A DNA stretch of 64,000 nt, from the sequence record PQ310662.1. One strand, 5' to 3'. The stretch comes from Escherichia phage Mimir124. Positions 2,557 through 64,000 of this stretch are shown here, in pieces (the first letter of the stretch is position 1; every line of letters begins with the position of its first letter). A model generated the notes under the pieces. It did no database searches. It was not told the origin of the DNA and saw only the letters and a list, made by a program, of their open reading frames with translations. The position numbers were made by a program, and so were the translations under genes.

Positions 2557-3731
2557 TGAATAACATACCTACACATACCCTTACTGATGAACAGTTAATG
2601 AGGGAGTACGACAGGATCCAAGCCAACGCATTTCTTGGACGCAGCGCAGCGTTTTTTGGTTCATTGCTGTGTAGTCTTAAGTTCTCATGGAAACGTGAGG
2701 ACTGTCCTACTGCATGTACCGATGGGATAGAACTCCATTTCAACCCAGACTTCTTTATCTGGATGTGTCCCGATGCAAGAGAAACAGTGCTAATGCACGA
2801 ACTCTGGCATGTGGCATATCTGCACGGCATCCGTTGTGGAAGCCGTGACCCGGAAGTCTGGAACCAGGCATGTGACCACTTCATCAACCTTCAGTTAGAA
2901 GAAGATGGTTACAAGTTCACTGGTATCGACAAAGGCATTTGCAAAGACCCTCAATATAAAGGATGGGTCGAAGAAGACATCTACGATGACCTGATGAAGA
3001 ACCCTCAGAAAAGGCAGAAGCCGTCAGGGGGTGCTGGAGCAGGTCTTGCTGGCGACATGAAAGCTCCCTCTTCGGGGCAGTCCCAGGGTGCTGTTGTCAA
3101 CAACGTAGTACGTGCAATGCAAAGCCAGAAGATGGCTGGTGGAATGATGCCCGGTAAAGGTGCTGGTCGTATGGAAGAGGTAATTACCCAATTCCTTAAA
3201 CCAGTGGTTCCTTGGCAGGAAGTCCTGCTGAACTTCTTTACCGACATTGATGACACACACTATACGTGGGCCAGACCTAATCGTCGTTTCACTGACATCT
3301 ATCTACCTTCTCTGGAAGATGATGAAGGACGCTTACGACACTTAGCTTACTTTGAGGATGTATCTGGTTCTATTAGTAGTGCTGACTCTCTGCGTTTTAA
3401 CTCAGAGGTTGCCTACGTTAAGAGCCAGTTCAATCCTAAGAAGATGACCCTTATTACCTTCGACGATATTATCCAAGAAGAAATAGACATCACTGAAGAA
3501 GATACTTTTGAAGAGATTAAGATTACCGGTCGTGGTGGTACAAACCTTGAACCAGTGCGTGAATGGATTATTAAGAATAAGCCAACCGCTGCAATCATAT
3601 TCTCTGATATGTATGTTAAACCAATGGAAGAATTACCATTTGATATCCCTATCATCTGGTGTGTTCTGAATAATCCCAATGCTACCGTACCTTTTGGGGA
3701 GGTAGTTCATATCCATAAAGGAATGAAATAA
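2556..3731 (+). CDS. VWA-domain protein with N-terminal HExxH metallopeptidase-like motif (partner of MoxR-like ATPase)
   Basis: HExxH (MHELWHVAYLH) in N-terminal part; MIDAS-like DxSxS (DVSGSIS) in C-terminal part; start overlaps the HNH stop. Confidence 0.5.
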   Translation: MNNIPTHTLTDEQLMREYDRIQANAFLGRSAAFFGSLLCSLKFSWKREDCPTACTDGIELHFNPDFFIWMCPDARETVLMHELWHVAYLHGIRCGSRDPEVWNQACDHFINLQLEEDGYKFTGIDKGICKDPQYKGWVEEDIYDDLMKNPQKRQKPSGGAGAGLAGDMKAPSSGQSQGAVVNNVVRAMQSQKMAGGMMPGKGAGRMEEVITQFLKPVVPWQEVLLNFFTDIDDTHYTWARPNRRFTDIYLPSLEDDEGRLRHLAYFEDVSGSISSADSLRFNSEVAYVKSQFNPKKMTLITFDDIIQEEIDITEEDTFEEIKITGRGGTNLEPVREWIIKNKPTAAIIFSDMYVKPMEELPFDIPIIWCVLNNPNATVPFGEVVHIHKGMK

Positions 3732-4267: not shown

Positions 4268-4468
4268 ATGTCAGTATTTCAAGTAACTCCTGTTGGCAGT
4301 ACTATGCGTAAAACTATTGTTGCAACTAACGTAGTAGACGTAGATGAAACTCCGGCAGGTGCTGTAATTCGTCTGATTGATGGACGTTCAGTATATGTAG
4401 AAGAAAGTTATCGTTCAGTACGTGGTTATATTCGCAAAGCCATGACTACCGCTTCTGACGCAGAGTAA
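4268..4468 (+). CDS. hypothetical protein
   Basis: 66-aa ORF with RBS-like AAGGAAACA upstream. Confidence 0.35.
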   Translation: MSVFQVTPVGSTMRKTIVATNVVDVDETPAGAVIRLIDGRSVYVEESYRSVRGYIRKAMTTASDAE

Positions 4469-4505
4469 GTAGCTGCCTAAATAGCCCAGCATAATTGGGC
4501 TATTT

Positions 4506-4802
4506 GTGAAGAAACTAACTCAACCCTACATAGGAACCATCATGGAATCTTTAGCAGCAATCCTCGTTCTGTTATTCGCACTAGCTGTATACCTTATCCC
4601 TACTATTATTGCTTTTACACGAGGCCATGCCTCTAAGTGGGGTATTGGTGTACTCAATATCGTATTAGGCTGGTCTTTAGTCTTCTGGGTAGTAGCACTG
4701 ATTTGGTCACTGTCTAATAAAGGACAGTCTCAGACTACAATCGTTAACGTTGGTAGTGGTAATCAGTACAACGTGTCTCAAACGAGCCAGTCTGATAAGT
4801 AA
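4506..4802 (+). CDS. superinfection immunity-like small membrane protein (Imm family)
   Basis: Two TM helices and motif PTIIAFTRGHASKWGIGVLNIVLGWSLVFWVVALIWSLS matching the conserved core I recall for phage Imm proteins. Confidence 0.5.
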   Translation: MKKLTQPYIGTIMESLAAILVLLFALAVYLIPTIIAFTRGHASKWGIGVLNIVLGWSLVFWVVALIWSLSNKGQSQTTIVNVGSGNQYNVSQTSQSDK

Positions 4803-5752: not shown

Positions 5753-6696
5753 TGATTAAGGCAACTGTCATTGCAGATTCCGTTCATCATGCAACGGGTA
5801 CTCGTATTACTACCTTTGAATTGGTCTATCCCCGATTCATTCACAGTGAGTTTATGACTCACCGTGTGTTCAACCGCAATGCTTCAAGCAGTCGTGCTAT
5901 CCCCACATCTAAGTTCATCGAACAGGTTCGTAAGGAACCAGTGATGCCAAGTCACTGGGGCAAGAACCAGAAAGGTATGCAAGCAGATGAAGAACTCACT
6001 CCTATGGAGATTGAGGATGCTAAGTTTATCTGGGATAACGCTGCATCTGCTGCTGCTGTATATGCTGAACAACTCCGTCGTGGACAAGTACATAAGCAGA
6101 TTGTTAACCGTATTCTGGAACCATTCACGCATATCCGTGTAGTAGTAACTTCAACTAGCTGGGCTAATTTCTATGGCTTGCGTGACCATGAAGACGCTCA
6201 ACCAGAGATTCGTGAACTGGCCCAAGCAATGCGTAAGGCTCATAATGAAAGTGTTCCATCAAAACTCATGCAAGGACATTGGCATATGCCATATATCACT
6301 GCTAATGATCGTTTTGCTGCTTACGATTTCTGCAAACATCAACGAATTACTCGTGATGAACCAAGTGGTGCAGAAGTGTATGGACTACTTCTCAAAGTAA
6401 GTGCTGCACGTTGTGCCCGTGCTTCTTATAACAACTTCGAGGGGCGACCTTCTACTATTGAAGAAGACCTTGGCTTGTTCGCTAAGTTAGTGGAAGACCA
6501 GCCTATTCATGCTTCACCAACGGAGCATCAGGCTACGCCTATGAACCTTGGTGAGAAGTATGTGAATAACATGAACCCAGTTACCTGGGAACAAGGTGTT
6601 ACATCTATGGATAAAGAAGGAAATCTGTACTCAGGTAACCTGCTTCACTTTATCCAATTCCGTAAGTTAATTCCTGGTGAGACTATTACTGAATGA
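5752..6696 (+). CDS. thyX: FAD-dependent thymidylate synthase (ThyX-like)
   Basis: ThyX-like signature region HRVFNRNASSSRA (degenerate RHR-x7-S) and downstream DAQPEIRELAQAM; 314 aa. Confidence 0.45.
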   Translation: MIKATVIADSVHHATGTRITTFELVYPRFIHSEFMTHRVFNRNASSSRAIPTSKFIEQVRKEPVMPSHWGKNQKGMQADEELTPMEIEDAKFIWDNAASAAAVYAEQLRRGQVHKQIVNRILEPFTHIRVVVTSTSWANFYGLRDHEDAQPEIRELAQAMRKAHNESVPSKLMQGHWHMPYITANDRFAAYDFCKHQRITRDEPSGAEVYGLLLKVSAARCARASYNNFEGRPSTIEEDLGLFAKLVEDQPIHASPTEHQATPMNLGEKYVNNMNPVTWEQGVTSMDKEGNLYSGNLLHFIQFRKLIPGETITE

Positions 6697-58872: not shown

Positions 58873-60483
58873 TCATACAATATATGAACGTAGTGGGTTA
58901 ACACTATCTTCTTCTTCCTCATCCCACATTGGGTCACCCTTACTATCCACCATAGTCATACCTGCTTGTGGTTTCCAAGGATTGAGATAACCCAGCATGG
59001 AGATAGTATCAATACAGTCATCCTTACCTTTGATCCCATTAATGGTAGCTAGTTTAATCTGGCCCATGAACAGACCCATAATAGTTGTATCTCTCAACTC
59101 TTCCGGGAAATACATCTTACCAGCCTTGAACCATGGAACTACCAGGTTAAAGCGTGACAGTTTAGAGGTTACAGGACGAATGCCTGGCTTACCACCCTCA
59201 GAGGAAGCAAAGTTAAAGAAGACATTACGGTTAATCATTTCTTTCTGAAGAAGTGAAATGAACCCACCCTGTTGACCTGTGATTTCGACCCCAACGTTTT
59301 GAGGTTGATATTCCTGAACCAGACGGAACAGGTCGTCAAAGTTTTTATCCATAAGCTGACGATTAGCCACACCATCAACCCAGAACCAATCTCCATTAGA
59401 ACTATAAGCCCAAACTGATATGACACTGTAGTCACTGGTCTGTTTCTCCGAAGTAGCAAAGTCAGTTGTAATATAATAGTTGTAACAGGACTTCATCCTT
59501 AATAGTTGCTGTCTGCTGTACCATTTAATCTCACTATCCTGAACCAGTCTCTCATCCTCAGAACTAATACGAAGCATAAGTTCCTGATAGAATCCTGCCA
59601 GCTTACCGGTCTTAACTGCCATGTCATACTGAGCTTTGATGTAGTCGTAAGAGAAACGGTCATCCCATGCACCCTGAAATTCTTCTTCACTACAGGGGAA
59701 CTTCTCACATACGGGCCATACGTTGACATCCCATGCACCAGACTCAACTGCTTCAATGATAATGTCTTCCTTATTAAAGGGAGTACCATTGAAGATTACT
59801 TTACGACGAGTCGGGTCAAGAGCATGGTTCACACCTTTATAGACAGTATCCTTAATAGCTTCCATACTTGTCTTGGAGTTAGCATCACCATCACTAATCA
59901 AGTCATCCAGTACACAGAGTGTTGGACGTTTACCATATATCTTAGTACCACGAAGACCTGTCTTAGCACCAAACAGCTTAACACCCAGTCGATGCCCTTC
60001 TGCATTACGAAACTCTAACAGGTTATCTGTAAAGGTAGCTTCAGGTATCCACTGCTGAAGGAACTCACTATTCTTGTACCGGAACTCAATATTCTTACGT
60101 GCAGACTTAGCACCGTTATCCATTGAGTCGGATACGTAAATCATTCCTTCTACTTTTCCCAGACTTGGTAAGTGACCAAAAACTGCCAGGAACAAAGTAA
60201 AGTATTCCATGAACACGGCAGTCTTACCTGCCCCACGAAAACACAGGTTAACTACATACTGGTTAGGGCTAATCATCTTATCCAGCATCTTCAGGTGAAC
60301 TGGGGGTGTTTTGTTGGATTCACCTTCCTTACCATTAACCAACTTAATAAAGTTGGCAAAGGTAAGAGCAAACTGACTAGGAACATAGTTGGAAGAATTA
60401 AGGTGGGAGTAATCCACCTGGTCTAGCCATTCATCTAGTTCCTGTTTAATTAACTCAGACATCTGTAATGTCCTCATCTGCAC
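58873..60483 (-). CDS. terminase large subunit
   Basis: 536 aa; Walker A-like FRGAGKTA, Walker B-like LCVLDDLISD, C-terminal acidic nuclease-like region. Confidence 0.6.
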   Translation of the reverse strand: MQMRTLQMSELIKQELDEWLDQVDYSHLNSSNYVPSQFALTFANFIKLVNGKEGESNKTPPVHLKMLDKMISPNQYVVNLCFRGAGKTAVFMEYFTLFLAVFGHLPSLGKVEGMIYVSDSMDNGAKSARKNIEFRYKNSEFLQQWIPEATFTDNLLEFRNAEGHRLGVKLFGAKTGLRGTKIYGKRPTLCVLDDLISDGDANSKTSMEAIKDTVYKGVNHALDPTRRKVIFNGTPFNKEDIIIEAVESGAWDVNVWPVCEKFPCSEEEFQGAWDDRFSYDYIKAQYDMAVKTGKLAGFYQELMLRISSEDERLVQDSEIKWYSRQQLLRMKSCYNYYITTDFATSEKQTSDYSVISVWAYSSNGDWFWVDGVANRQLMDKNFDDLFRLVQEYQPQNVGVEITGQQGGFISLLQKEMINRNVFFNFASSEGGKPGIRPVTSKLSRFNLVVPWFKAGKMYFPEELRDTTIMGLFMGQIKLATINGIKGKDDCIDTISMLGYLNPWKPQAGMTMVDSKGDPMWDEEEEDSVNPLRSYIV

Positions 60484-61144
60484 GTACTAGTTTAGAACCA
60501 GCAATCTCTTTGGTAGGTACACCACTATTGATTGCATTGATTTGCTGTTCAGCTAGTGCAGCAAGTGTTGCCTTGAGGTCGGTTAACCCGGAGTTCTCTC
60601 TCAAGTCCAGATTGATATTTGTCACCTGGTCTTTTGGTTTAGCTAAGTGAGTAAGGATAGAGTTAGCTGCATCACATCTTACCTTCTCACTTGCTGCTGT
60701 AGTCATTAGTTCAACCTGAACGTTGATTGCCTTCTGATAATTGTCTTGGTTCACAATCCACACTGGAACCAAACTTTGTTCCATGATGAGGTTAACTAGC
60801 TTACCCCTGTGGTAAGCAGATACATAAGCACTAATATCTTTCTCACTGGTTCCACGTGCTACAAGTTCTGCTTGTCGGTTAGGGAATGTTTTAAAGTAGG
60901 CTTCCTTATTGGAATAGCCCATATGTTTGTAAGTCACATACTGAACTGCATTCATGTAGTCCTGTGTCTTGAACTTACCCTCCTTCATAACACCAGAGTA
61001 GGAGATGAAGTTTTCACGGAATGCCTCAGCAACCAGTTGGTCTTGGGTTATGTTGTTGATCGTGTCTACCAATTCCTGGCTTACACTATTTTTGAAGTTA
61101 GCAGGTAGTGCATTAATAATTTGCTGTCTGGTTAACTCACTCAT
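60455..61144 (-). CDS. putative terminase small subunit
   Basis: 229 aa immediately upstream of TerL, overlapping its start; assignment by position. Confidence 0.3.
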   Translation of the reverse strand: MSELTRQQIINALPANFKNSVSQELVDTINNITQDQLVAEAFRENFISYSGVMKEGKFKTQDYMNAVQYVTYKHMGYSNKEAYFKTFPNRQAELVARGTSEKDISAYVSAYHRGKLVNLIMEQSLVPVWIVNQDNYQKAINVQVELMTTAASEKVRCDAANSILTHLAKPKDQVTNINLDLRENSGLTDLKATLAALAEQQINAINSGVPTKEIAGSKLVRADEDITDV

Positions 61145-61315
61145 ACTTATCTCTCTACAAAGTTATGTCTATTAACGAAGATTCTTTTCTTGGGGTGAGA
61201 TACCCCTTGAAGAAACCATACCATACAGTTACACTTTAGTCATGATATAGAAAAAGTTCATGATACTAAATAGTATGTAATGTTCCGATGACCTTATTCC
61301 CTAAAGGAGTAACCT

Positions 61316-61606
61316 TTGAGAATCTATATGAGAGTCTACGACTCTAAAGATGAATACAAAGAGCTAGACCACACCAAGGCTGGTATTCTTTCAGATGATA
61401 TTATCATTACACATGATGAAGATATCTATCATGAATTAGCTGGGATGATGCTGTTAGAGAATCGTCCAGGCATTAAGATCTTAGAACCAAGAGAAACTTA
61501 CTCTTTAGAAAAACGCTTTTCAGCTCTTGTGTTCTTCACAAAATTACCTCATAGTGTCTCCATCAAACGAAGCAAAGACAGAGTTCGGATGACGGTGACG
61601 ATGTGA
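61316..61606 (+). CDS. small early-region protein, paralog family member 1
   Basis: Shares motif YHELAGMMLLENRPGIKIL with downstream paralogs. Confidence 0.4.
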   Translation: MRIYMRVYDSKDEYKELDHTKAGILSDDIIITHDEDIYHELAGMMLLENRPGIKILEPRETYSLEKRFSALVFFTKLPHSVSIKRSKDRVRMTVTM

Positions 61607-61754
61607 TTAGTCATACCGCCTAGTAGACAGTGGCGGTACTCGTAAAGAGTTAATAACTTCTACAGTCAGGGTTGCCCGGCTCCTTTCCTACCTAGTAGGC
61701 TAACGATACACATGTATCTAGGGTGATGAACTGACCCGTGATAGAAAACGGTAA

Positions 61755-61790
61755 GGGGTAGAGTCGAGAGGCTCTGCCCCATTTCTTTTT
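61755..61790 (+). terminator. hairpin plus T-run (terminator or attenuator)
   Basis: GGGGTAGAG-tcgagagg-CTCTGCCCC followed by ATTTCTTTTT. Confidence 0.45.
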
Positions 61791-61806
61791 CAGGAGGTAT
61801 GCAACT

Positions 61807-62205
61807 ATGAGCATCTACGCTTTTGATATTGATATTACTGGAGTACTTCATAAGCAGGAACCCTATCTACTTGGGGAACCAGAAACAGTAAGTAAGTTCA
61901 TTGCCCCGTGGCAATCTGTGTTCTTACCTAACTGTGAAGAGTCCCATGAGATTGTTGGTTCTCTCTTCTTATCAAACCTACAACTTAATACTGAGATACT
62001 TACCGAACCAAAGGTGTATGACCTCACTCGTTATGATGGATTCAATGAGTTCTTCCCTGGTATACGTTTCTATAAAATACCCGGTTGGGAATTGATAGCT
62101 GCCCATAATGTCTTTAATAAAACACTTTCCATTTACTTCAGACCTATTCCTAAAGGAAGGAGAATCAATCATGAAATTCATAATGACCGCCCCCAGTTTT
62201 ATTAA
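61807..62205 (+). CDS. small early-region protein, paralog family member 2
   Basis: SHEIVGSLFLSNLQLNTEIL motif. Confidence 0.4.
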   Translation: MSIYAFDIDITGVLHKQEPYLLGEPETVSKFIAPWQSVFLPNCEESHEIVGSLFLSNLQLNTEILTEPKVYDLTRYDGFNEFFPGIRFYKIPGWELIAAHNVFNKTLSIYFRPIPKGRRINHEIHNDRPQFY

Positions 62206-62485
62206 AGGGGAATTATTGTTTACAACTGACTTCACTTTAGAAGAAGTGATGAACAGCAGTCCCCAACGAGTAATACTGGTTCCTACTTTAGAAGATTATC
62301 ATGAAGTAAGGGGTCAGCTATTCTTAGCTGGTTGTGACCGTAAGGTTGTATGTATCATTCCTCCCTCAGTATACACCGTTAGTTGTGCATATGATGCTCT
62401 ACCTTTCATGATGATATCTCATGACTACCAGTGGGATAGTCGTCATGATAATGATGACTATCGTTACTACTATGTAAGGAAGTAA
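62171..62485 (+). CDS. small early-region protein, paralog family member 3 (start chosen at ATG with RBS; longest ORF starts 62108)
   Basis: YHEVRGQLFLAGCDRKVVCI motif; GGAAGGAG RBS before ATG 62171. Confidence 0.4.
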   Translation: MKFIMTAPSFIKGELLFTTDFTLEEVMNSSPQRVILVPTLEDYHEVRGQLFLAGCDRKVVCIIPPSVYTVSCAYDALPFMMISHDYQWDSRHDNDDYRYYYVRK

Positions 62486-62488
62486 GTT

Positions 62489-62809
62489 ATGCACTTCTAT
62501 GGTTTGAGTTATCGTAGTACCAGTCCCCTTAATCTGGGGGTAGGTAAATCCCATTGGTTGAGGATAAGCACACCTATGACCATGTACTACGAACAATGTG
62601 AAAAAGCGGATGAGTTCATCGGAACCTGCCTCATGTTGGGTGTACCTATTACCTTTATTAAAATAGATACTTCCATTGAAGTTCCAGAGAATGTAGTTGT
62701 ATACATCTACTCCTCCTGTGAACCTATGGTAGTAACTACCTTAACTGGCAGACTTATTACCCTCTGCCCTTCTACCTCAAATTTATCTAGCGACGAGTGT
62801 ACCTTATGA
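62489..62809 (+). CDS. small early-region protein, paralog family member 4
   Basis: ADEFIGTCLMLGVPITFIKI motif. Confidence 0.35.
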   Translation: MHFYGLSYRSTSPLNLGVGKSHWLRISTPMTMYYEQCEKADEFIGTCLMLGVPITFIKIDTSIEVPENVVVYIYSSCEPMVVTTLTGRLITLCPSTSNLSSDECTL

Positions 62810-63147
62810 ATAGAGTACTGTACCTCCATCAGTATACGGATGAAGTCTCTGTTTACTCTGAGAACATTACTAAAGCTATTGATTGGTTACTCCCCCAAGA
62901 CTGTCATATGCTTATGCTACCTGGAGAGTTAGCAGATAGTACCCGTGGTTCCATCCTTCTTCTCAATAGTCCAGCTAAGTTAACCATCCTTAATCCGAGG
63001 GAATCCATAAAGATACCTGCTGGTGAATCTGCATTCTTGTTCTTTGAACCAAGGATAGAAGAAGGGTTTGTTGGGCTTACTATAGACAGTAGACCTAATA
63101 AAGATTTTAAAAGAGTACGTATCATTACCCCAAGGGTGCTCTTATGA
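62797..63147 (+). CDS. small early-region protein, paralog family member 5
   Basis: PGELADSTRGSILLLNSPAKLTIL..ESIKIP motif, closest to member 6. Confidence 0.4.
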   Translation: MYLMNRVLYLHQYTDEVSVYSENITKAIDWLLPQDCHMLMLPGELADSTRGSILLLNSPAKLTILNPRESIKIPAGESAFLFFEPRIEEGFVGLTIDSRPNKDFKRVRIITPRVLL

Positions 63148-63186
63148 AATCAAACACATCTCCTTACCGGATATGGATACTAAAAC

Positions 63187-63525
63187 ATGAACGTTAAGCT
63201 CTTAGGAATGAAAGGTACAGACTTACTGCATTATTCTTCTGTACCAGAGAAAGTAATCCTCCACGTTATGTCTCATGGAACTTCTACACTAATAATGGAA
63301 CCAGGAGAGTTAGCAGAATTTGCACAGGGACATAAGCTAATTACTAACAGTAACGCAGAGATAGTTATCCTGCAAAATGGTGAGTCAGTCTTCATACCAT
63401 ATGGTGATTATGCCCATGTATTTATCAAAGATGCTACCGTAAGGAATAGTAGTGGTGGTAATAACCATCCGGACTATTACCCTGGTATAGCACGCATAAT
63501 CACCCGAAAGCTTCCTCCTATTTAA
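63187..63525 (+). CDS. small early-region protein, paralog family member 6
   Basis: PGELAEFAQGHKLITNSNAEIVIL..ESVFIP motif. Confidence 0.4.
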   Translation: MNVKLLGMKGTDLLHYSSVPEKVILHVMSHGTSTLIMEPGELAEFAQGHKLITNSNAEIVILQNGESVFIPYGDYAHVFIKDATVRNSSGGNNHPDYYPGIARIITRKLPPI

Positions 63526-63742
63526 CTGCTTATAATTAGGATAGCTATCATATTTTTGCATACCATTTTGGTCATAGCTATGTATAGCTACAGTGGTGGT
63601 GGCTAGGGCTACACCCTTACACTCAACCATCCCCCCCGGTATGTTGACGGTGTAGCCACTACCCTACCCCACCTTACACGTTACACATGCTCCGCATGTT
63701 ATGGACATGTCGTCCTATCATCAACTATTGGAGCTATCATCA

Positions 63743-64000
63743 TGACTACTACCGCTTCTGTACGTATGACCGCAGGAACTTTACTTGGTACTGTTAACTC
63801 AGCTGCTACTACTGTTGCAGATACCTTCGGTACTGCAACTAAAGCAGTAGGTATGCTTAATTCATATGTTAGTACTATGGCAGAGAAACAGGCCATCCGT
63901 ACTAAATTAGAAATGCATACCTTTGTTAATAAACTGGCAGAGGAAACAGCTATGAACGAGACTCTGCGTAAGAAAAGTATCGAAGATTTCTGCAAGGATT
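63743..64000 (+). CDS. 5' part of a + strand gene running off the window end
   Basis: ATG at 63743 opens a frame with no stop to the window end (MTTTASVRMTAGTLLGT...); absent from the ORF track because it is incomplete. Confidence 0.4.

Follow-up and report, generated by a model that had tools for sequence, protein, structure and literature searches.

A tandem array of small paralogous genes beside the right terminal repeat of an N4-like Escherichia phage

The six genes of the array

A 64,000-nt stretch of DNA from Escherichia phage Mimir124 (record PQ310662.1; the whole stretch is termed the window) contains, near its right end, six consecutive plus strand open reading frames (ORFs) that encode small proteins. 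These are termed members 1 to 6 (m1 to m6), and their coordinates are in Table 1. The comparisons below provide good support for one divergent superfamily that comprises all six ORFs and includes the N4 proteins gp70 and gp71. An original prediction made from the nucleotide sequence had listed the six ORFs as paralogs with a shared core. All six are present at the positions given there, with the starts of m3 and m5 needing to be moved, and the paralogy and the shared core are borne out by several independent comparisons.

Pairwise BLASTP searches show similarity in one register between m5 and m6 (E=8e-10), m2 and m3 (9e-6), and m1 and m5 (4e-4). In PHROGs the six proteins fall into five families, one of which contains both m5 and m6, and there are weak matches across families. 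To widen the comparison, the arrays of 17 phages were collected, which gave 112 ORFs in 23 clusters, and the family alignments were compared by hhalign. The probabilities are 97.9% for m5/m6, 92.6% for m1 and C6, 81.8% for m3 and C6, 76.5% for m2 and m3, and 42% for m4 and m5, where C6 is an array family that is missing from the window. When families were merged into groups GA (the m1, m2 and m3 families), GB (m5 and m6) and GC (m4), the probabilities were 87.6% for GA-GB (P=3.5e-6), 59% for GA-GC and 47.5% for GB-GC. Reversed decoys reached a maximum of 2.9%, and the unrelated array families C4 and C11 a maximum of 0.6%.

Family hidden Markov models (HMMs) were also used to scan all 587 stop-to-stop ORFs of the window. 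The top non-self matches are other array members, and no family member was found among these ORFs outside of the array. A superfamily HMM, built with one family left out at a time, gave scores of 30.5, 18.3, 23.4, 8.8, 21.6 and 11.4 bits for m1 to m6, respectively. Each of the six outscores all 2000 of its own shuffles; the passes are narrow for m4 (8.8 vs a shuffle maximum of 7.7 bits) and for m6 (11.4 vs 10.0). The lowest score is that of m4, which is the weakest member and not an intermediate one as had been proposed. Proteins that bridge the groups come from a metagenomic N4-like contig, L030, that has a seven-gene array. One of these, P0382, matches GA (5.5e-9), GB (2.1e-12) and GC (3.2e-5), and a second, L030_5057, matches GC (2e-14) and GA (6e-7); both tie the m4 group to the others.

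Two results weigh against a single family. A comparison of the deep m1-family and m5/m6-family alignments by hhalign gave only 3.9%, and pairs such as m4-m6 and m2-m6 show no significant similarity by pairwise BLASTP. Because of the former, the link between m1 and m5/m6 rests on the merged profiles, the bridging sequences and the structure.

The core signature was read from the six-way alignment and from an alignment of 96 sequences. It consists of a hydrophobic strand, a Pro, acidic residues, and a helix with a near-invariant Gly, followed by hhL, all in one register. Two details of the motif as first described do not hold. There is no 4-residue insertion, as the best six-way alignment is ungapped and pairs PGELADSTRG with DEDIYHELAG; and only a single residue, one Gly, is near-invariant.

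Structure prediction bears out a common fold in part: the models of m3 and m6 display the same order of elements, but the m6 model is weak. AlphaFold with the 96-sequence superfamily alignment gave for m3 a predicted local distance difference test score (pLDDT) of 86.8 and a predicted template modelling (TM) score of 0.79, with all five models at pLDDT 85-87; m6 with its own-family alignment gave a pLDDT of 64. The order in both models is b-b-a-b-a-b-b-b-b-b, in about 100 aa with two helices. In the m3 model the signature corresponds to strand b3 (ILV), a Pro, and then a 13-residue helix, LEDYHEVRGQLFL, that bears the conserved Gly.

A Foldseek search of the PDB with the m3 model revealed no match (best E=0.85, TM score at most 0.34). 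Against the viral structure library BFVD there are 12 matches with E<=0.001, every one of them to a small uncharacterised protein of an N4-like phage: EC1-UPM, PhAPEC5, PhAPEC7, the N4-type OLB145, Klebsiella phage KP8 (three proteins) and Achromobacter phages (three proteins). The BFVD matches include C6, the N4-type gp71 of OLB145 and the KP8 family C14, and several come from one and the same genome. Weaker matches are to further Achromobacter proteins, to four proteins of Pseudomonas phage Zuri, and to the IME11 ortholog of m5 (E=4e-3, TM score 0.47). An exhaustive HMMER search with a six-sequence profile against 1.84 billion representative sequences found 29 proteins with E<=1e-3, all but one of 54-134 aa. 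The exception is P0374 (1664 aa), whose five matched stretches are spurious, as this is a low-complexity repeat protein (GPLLLENES...). A narrow family of soluble proteins that is specific to Schitoviridae, and for which the m3 model predicts an alpha/beta fold with no PDB counterpart, is well supported by the models and searches.

Searches of Pfam, NCBIfam, PADLOC and PDB sequences gave nothing significant, and no signal of an enzyme or of a known family was seen. It should be noted that PADLOC covers defence and not anti-defence proteins; it gave no match to the array members. The PDB sequence profile search returned only chains similar to African swine fever virus (ASFV) p15, with a non-significant E of about 0.25. 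PHROGs lists all five array families as 'unknown function', and in the searchable literature neither a function for gp70 or gp71 nor phage-wide knock-down data for N4 were found.

Two fold assignments were considered and rejected. A cupin fold for m5 and m6 was suggested by a weak match of m6 to Cupin_3 (E=0.31) and by Gly and hydrophobic residues that are spaced in a loosely similar way. The match has 11.2 bits vs a cut-off of 23.5, only 6 of 122 family members match at all (best E=0.07), the models carry two helices, and the Foldseek PDB results are without any cupin. A resemblance to the AbrB/MazE-like swapped hairpin was dropped without a formal profile test: in the m3 model the motif forms a short strand and a helix of 13 residues and not b-a-b-b, and there is no support from Pfam.

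The six ORFs are real genes under purifying selection, since the ratio of non-synonymous to synonymous change (dN/dS) is 0.18-0.33 for every array member (6-15 Gamaleyaviruses per family), vs 0.024 for the neighboring gp69. Non-synonymous change itself (dN) is 0.09-0.23 in the array genes vs 0.008 in gp69, i.e., 10-25 times faster. The proteins are soluble and neutral to mildly acidic. A collection of 5.8 billion proteins contains 136 homolog clusters for m1, 403 for m3 and 277 for m5/m6, mostly on contigs of about 70-73 kb.

With respect to identity, m1 has a full-length profile match to gp70, is syntenic next to the opposite-strand gp69, and clusters with gp70 of N4 and KP8. The gp71 profile is matched by m2 over its full length, and m2 is positioned past the gp70 spacer and terminator. 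The G7C ortholog of m2 matches N4 gp71 by BLASTP with E=1e-9, and on the gp71 side the families are linked by hhalign (C1-C9 93.3%, C1-C12 97.3%). The annotations of PhAPEC5 and G7C likewise have homologs of N4 gp70 and gp71 as the first two plus strand ORFs.

The start of m1 is a TTG, 6 nt after AAGGAG, with an alternative ATG at 61328. For m3 the most likely start is the ATG at 62171, and the ORF that opens at 62108 appears over-extended, because the PHROG 11661 match opens at residue 22 of the long ORF, nearly all database homologs are 103-105 aa, and AAGGAAGGAG stands upstream. The most likely start of m5, judged from database homologs and PHROG alignments, is the ATG at 62806, which forms an ATGA overlap with the m4 stop codon. 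Members 2 to 5 overlap or almost abut, m6 follows after a 39-nt gap, and m1 is set off by 200 nt.

Two side observations concern individual members. Orthologs of m6 are found in two forms (alignment A1; relatives L006, L013 and L014), with near-identical N-terminal halves and C-terminal halves that differ past about residue 62; recombination within the gene is therefore indicated. Gamaleyavirus gp70-like and C6-like proteins (P0160, P0181, P0350) appear in the public record as hypothetical proteins of Enterococcus faecium, from a contig of 2.76 Mb, and these records are probably contamination or a chimeric assembly.

Table 1. Coordinates of the array genes and of neighboring features in the window
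Feature	Length	Coordinates	Strand	Remarks
m1	96 aa	61316..61606	+	N4 gp70 ortholog; PHROG 7213, E=7.8e-44 over residues 1-96
m2	132 aa	61807..62205	+	N4 gp71 ortholog; PHROG 9160, E=1.3e-63
m3	104 aa	62171..62485	+	PHROG 11661
m4	106 aa	62489..62809	+	PHROG 12099; most divergent member
m5	113 aa	62806..63147	+	PHROG 12606
m6	112 aa	63187..63525	+	PHROG 12606; nearest paralog is m5
Divergent intergenic region		61145..61315		GC hairpin and element partly conserved with N4, KP8 and JWAlpha
m1-m2 spacer		61607..61806	+	Conserved non-coding, candidate structured RNA
Right border of array, CCTCCTATTTAACTGCTTATAA	22 nt	63514..63535	+	Stops in all three frames
Terminase large subunit, N4 gp68 homolog		58873..60483	-	From ORF and annotations of relatives; last block of leftward late genes
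N4 gp69 homolog		60455..61144	-	Annotated as terminase small subunit in some relatives; divergent from array
Terminal repeat	about 401 bp	63599..64000	+	63599 is left terminus and 64000 right terminus, as mapped in IME11

Genomic position, copy number and cassette border

The 3.6 kb around the array have 95% identity to Escherichia phage IME11, the closest relative, and the array region also matches about 60 G7C-like N4-like phages (genus Gamaleyavirus, family Schitoviridae). By these matches the window phage is a Gamaleyavirus, i.e., a G7C/IME11-like N4-like phage. Among Gamaleyaviruses the aa identity of gp69 is 97-100%.

The termini of the IME11 genome are known from sequencing reads (PMC3896407). 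The IME11 terminal reads were placed at window positions 63599 (plus strand) and 63981-64000 (minus strand), with one match each, and the right genome terminus of IME11 corresponds to the final base of the window. The gp1 ORF that begins at 63742 is a terminal-repeat copy. The G7C record is linear, with a left end 145 bp upstream of gp1, and has its copy of the array immediately before the right terminal repeat. Because the IME11 terminal reads fix 63599-64000 as the repeat, it is well supported that the unique part of the virion chromosome ends with the array, which has the terminase genes on its left and the right terminal repeat on its right.

This position does not agree with the initial view of the array as the start of an early, or host-takeover, block; the IME11 termini and the G7C record place it at the right genome end, beside the terminal repeat. 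The early block of N4, which is transcribed by the virion RNA polymerase from hairpin promoters with a 3-nt loop, is the left approximately 10 kb past the left terminus, and the array is upstream of 63599. In N4 the left genome end is injected first (PMC4496689). Because the DNA enters left end first, the cluster enters last and would not be expressed early. Inspection by eye of the gp69-m1 intergenic region found no hairpin that satisfies the N4 promoter base rules.

The number of superfamily members per array was counted from the cluster assignments. There are two in N4, four in G7C, five in JWAlpha, five among about 10 ORFs in KP8, six in the window, six plus one unrelated gene in IME11, seven in the metagenomic contig L030, and seven plus one unrelated gene in PhAPEC7. 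Thus both copy number and content vary between closely related phages, and array content differs even among phages with gp69 identities of 96% or more. A six-fold expansion had been regarded as unusual, but the Gamaleyavirus arrays examined have 4-7 members, so that six is within the usual range of the genus.

The right border of the array, CCTCCTATTTAACTGCTTATAA, is kept in all Gamaleyaviruses examined, regardless of the family of the last gene, and is followed by a palindrome and T-run, GATAGCTATCATATTTTTGCAT (63514-63561 region). Different last genes join this border and consequently share the C-terminal tails SYLTAYK, LLFNCL or PPI. The border resembles a fixed point of recombination at which cassettes are exchanged.

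Additional segments were observed in relatives and are not present in the window. Cluster C4 (about 104 aa) is an extra array gene, unrelated to the paralogs and without a Pfam match, whose HELNH (HExxH-like) motif hints at a small metallopeptidase. The gene is carried by L001 (5745-6059, IME11_81), L003, L007, L008, L009, L012, L013, L014, L016 and L017. Phages pSb-1, St11Ph5 and 24-32N have an extra segment right after the border (L010 4059-4193; L016 4079-4213; L007 about 4340-4660), which in pSb-1 and St11Ph5 is annotated with a 44-aa ORF.

The layout was compared with that of other N4-like phages. N4 gp70 and gp71 resemble m1 and m2 in their place after gp69, their strand and the spacer of about 200 nt with a terminator. 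However, N4 has only gp70, gp71 and a 42-aa gp72, whereas the window has four more paralogs (PHROGs 11661, 12099, and 12606 twice). JWAlpha, an Achromobacter phage of another subfamily, has the same layout: gp69, a gp70 homolog, a terminator, four motif-bearing ORFs and the terminal repeat. The right-end clusters of JWAlpha (JJJB_0087-0091), KP8 and L030 all share the layout, belong to the array family and display the strand-Pro-acidic-helix-Gly motif, but they differ from the window in the number and subfamilies of members. In JWAlpha the assignment is by HMM for JW87 and JW90, and by the motif as seen by eye for JW88, JW89 and JW91; further support comes from BFVD structural matches to unidentified JWAlpha proteins whose lengths agree. 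Inserts unrelated to the family, e.g., C4, are also present in KP8 and in some Gamaleyaviruses.

In phage LUZ7 the slot immediately before the right terminal repeat is occupied by 29 small ORFans, gp87-gp115 (Ceyssens 2010, PMC3715699; Putzeys 2022, PMC9163698). This rightmost cluster is reported to be covered by Watson-strand mid-infection transcripts (PMC9163698), and it is the only such cluster with expression data. It shares with the array the slot between a gp69-like gene and the right repeat, the strand logic and a tandem expansion of paralogs; at least 16 of the 29 are mutual BLAST matches and form one family (L029 8699-14346). The family differs from that of the array, with proteins of about 65 aa that have a KYxKE motif and are apparently helical by eye. 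Homology to the array family was rejected, as the superfamily HMMs all gave E>0.08. On this comparison the same genomic slot has seen tandem expansion of two families, with that of LUZ7 not homologous to that of the array.

Non-coding elements

The intergenic region upstream of m1 has a GC hairpin, GGGGTGAGATACCCC (61192-61206), that is common to the window and N4. The window element upstream of m1 consists of TTACACTTTAGTC, an AUACU-AAAU-AGUAU hairpin and CCTTATTCCCTAAAGGAG. Upstream of gp70, phages N4, KP8 and JWAlpha share TTAGACTTTAGACT, TTAGTCTCCTTACAATAGTAAGACAGAGAC and CCTATTGCCCAAAGGA in this order, and the window version is related. The loci compared are window 61192-61315, L004 about 4396-4555, L012 about 3068-3240 and L018 about 5801-5940. 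This element may be a promoter or leader element. As a general promoter motif it was discarded, with a single occurrence in the window. A sigma-70 scan found fewer sites than in shuffled sequences, none of them well placed and none convincing upstream of the array.

The spacer between m1 and m2 is better conserved than the flanking proteins and is kept from E. coli to Achromobacter N4-like phages. It has a hairpin right after the gp70 stop codon (61615-61637), followed by two short sequences, UUAAUAAC (61650-61657) and CUACAGUCAG (61660-61669), a pair that is identical in JWAlpha. Next come two internal hairpins (61687-61699 and about 61704-61721) and, immediately ahead of the ribosome-binding site of m2, a strong intrinsic terminator (61755-61790). 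Folding gives z-scores of -2.7 (window), -2.9 (N4) and -3.7 (JWAlpha). Compensatory changes are found in both internal hairpins and in the terminator stem among eight closely related sequences. An Rfam search of 60900-64000 gave nothing credible. The spacer is a candidate for a novel structured RNA or a regulatory DNA element, although eight related sequences are too few for proof.

Expression, role and rival explanations

The explanation that accounts best for these data, and that is given about an even chance of being correct as a whole, is a right-end accessory cluster of six paralogs that is expressed at the middle stage and encodes diversified host-binding proteins. In this scheme m1 (gp70) stands alone, followed by the conserved, putatively structured spacer and its terminator, and m2-m6 would be one translationally coupled operon that ends at the conserved border just before the right terminal repeat. 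The genes would originate from old tandem duplications followed by fast divergence. Later, whole cassettes may have been gained, lost and swapped between related phages, with recombination anchored on the border. By analogy with LUZ7, rightward middle-stage transcription by the phage RNA polymerase II (RNAPII) would read across the genome into the sense-oriented cluster. The proteins could be non-enzymatic binding proteins, each directed at its own host protein, which may belong to a defence system or to housekeeping; confidence in this assignment is low. Gain or loss of a copy would then alter which hosts are permissive and not the viability of the phage.

Of the functional readings, diversified accessory binders aimed at host factors are the best fit, because of the fast divergence, the cassette turnover, the narrow host-linked distribution, the absence of a catalytic signature and the presence of several copies per genome. 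A host-interaction role in particular fits the high dN relative to gp69. The original suggestion of anti-defence factors or of different host targets is plausible.

Several points weigh against this explanation. The timing of expression is borrowed from LUZ7, whose cluster is of another protein family and whose middle promoters are unlike those of N4. The terminator is directly upstream of m2, and no promoter was found for m2-m6, whose transcription would have to depend on read-through or on a promoter for a phage polymerase. Genes that enter last are poorly placed with respect to defences that act on incoming DNA. In addition, gp70 and its flanking non-coding elements are conserved across subfamilies, and therefore a core role, e.g., in replication or in the handling of ends, fits better than an arms race, at least for m1.

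The main rival, especially for gp70, is a role in the biology of the genome end, although its likelihood is judged to be small. The proteins would function in replication initiation at the right end, in protection or processing of the terminus, or in packaging, and the extra copies would be sub-functionalised helpers. Consistent with this are the cross-subfamily conservation of the gp70 homolog and its flanking elements, and the position of the cluster, which in Enquatrovirinae and JWAlpha is always between the terminase genes and the right terminal repeat. A review states that N4 DNA synthesis preferentially begins at the right end, and the LUZ7 authors guess at a replication-related role for their rightmost cluster because it is co-transcribed with middle genes (PMC9163698). 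However, a copy number that ranges from 2 to about 7, with members freely lost between near-identical phages, is unlike that of core replication or packaging factors. Non-synonymous change is at 10-25 times the gp69 rate, the proteins are neutral to acidic, and no nucleic-acid-binding or enzyme family was detected.

A slim chance is accorded to a related scheme, in which the right end of Schitoviridae would carry a conserved module made of a structured, terminator-ended RNA of about 190 nt, located between gp70 and gp71, and an expandable set of small proteins with a novel fold. Transcription that pulls in the last DNA would switch the module on, its paralogs would neutralise host systems that act late, and swapping at the border would set host range. 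Possible late targets are abortive-infection sensors of terminase, portal or capsid, and nucleases that act on the newly entered free end.

It is improbable that the proteins are small transcription regulators that, at the switch from middle to late genes, modulate RNAPII, N4SSB or the RNA polymerase of the host. N4-like phages do use small early or middle polymerase cofactors (gp1, gp2, Drc), and the cluster is probably expressed at the middle stage, but the searches link the array proteins neither to gp1, gp2 or Drc nor to a family of sigma or anti-sigma factors, and a variable copy number would be unexpected in a fixed regulatory circuit. Finally, a chance or compositional resemblance among unrelated ORFans or non-genes, for which the non-significant m4-m6 and m2-m6 pairs and the low deep m1 vs m5/m6 score could be cited, was tested and rejected as highly improbable, since decoys and unrelated neighbors score far lower, HMM ranking, shuffles, bridging proteins and structural matches link the groups, and dN/dS is below 0.35 in every member.

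The analysis consolidates known 'hypothetical' genes into one family and does not describe a new kind of system. The right-end ORFs of N4, G7C, KP8 and Achromobacter phages, including gp70 and gp71, are brought together as one fast-evolving family, and about five separate 'unknown' PHROGs become a single target for structural and genetic work. The array would also represent a natural site of cassette exchange that may influence host range. This is of some practical relevance, as G7C-like phages are isolated as therapy candidates against pathogenic E. coli.

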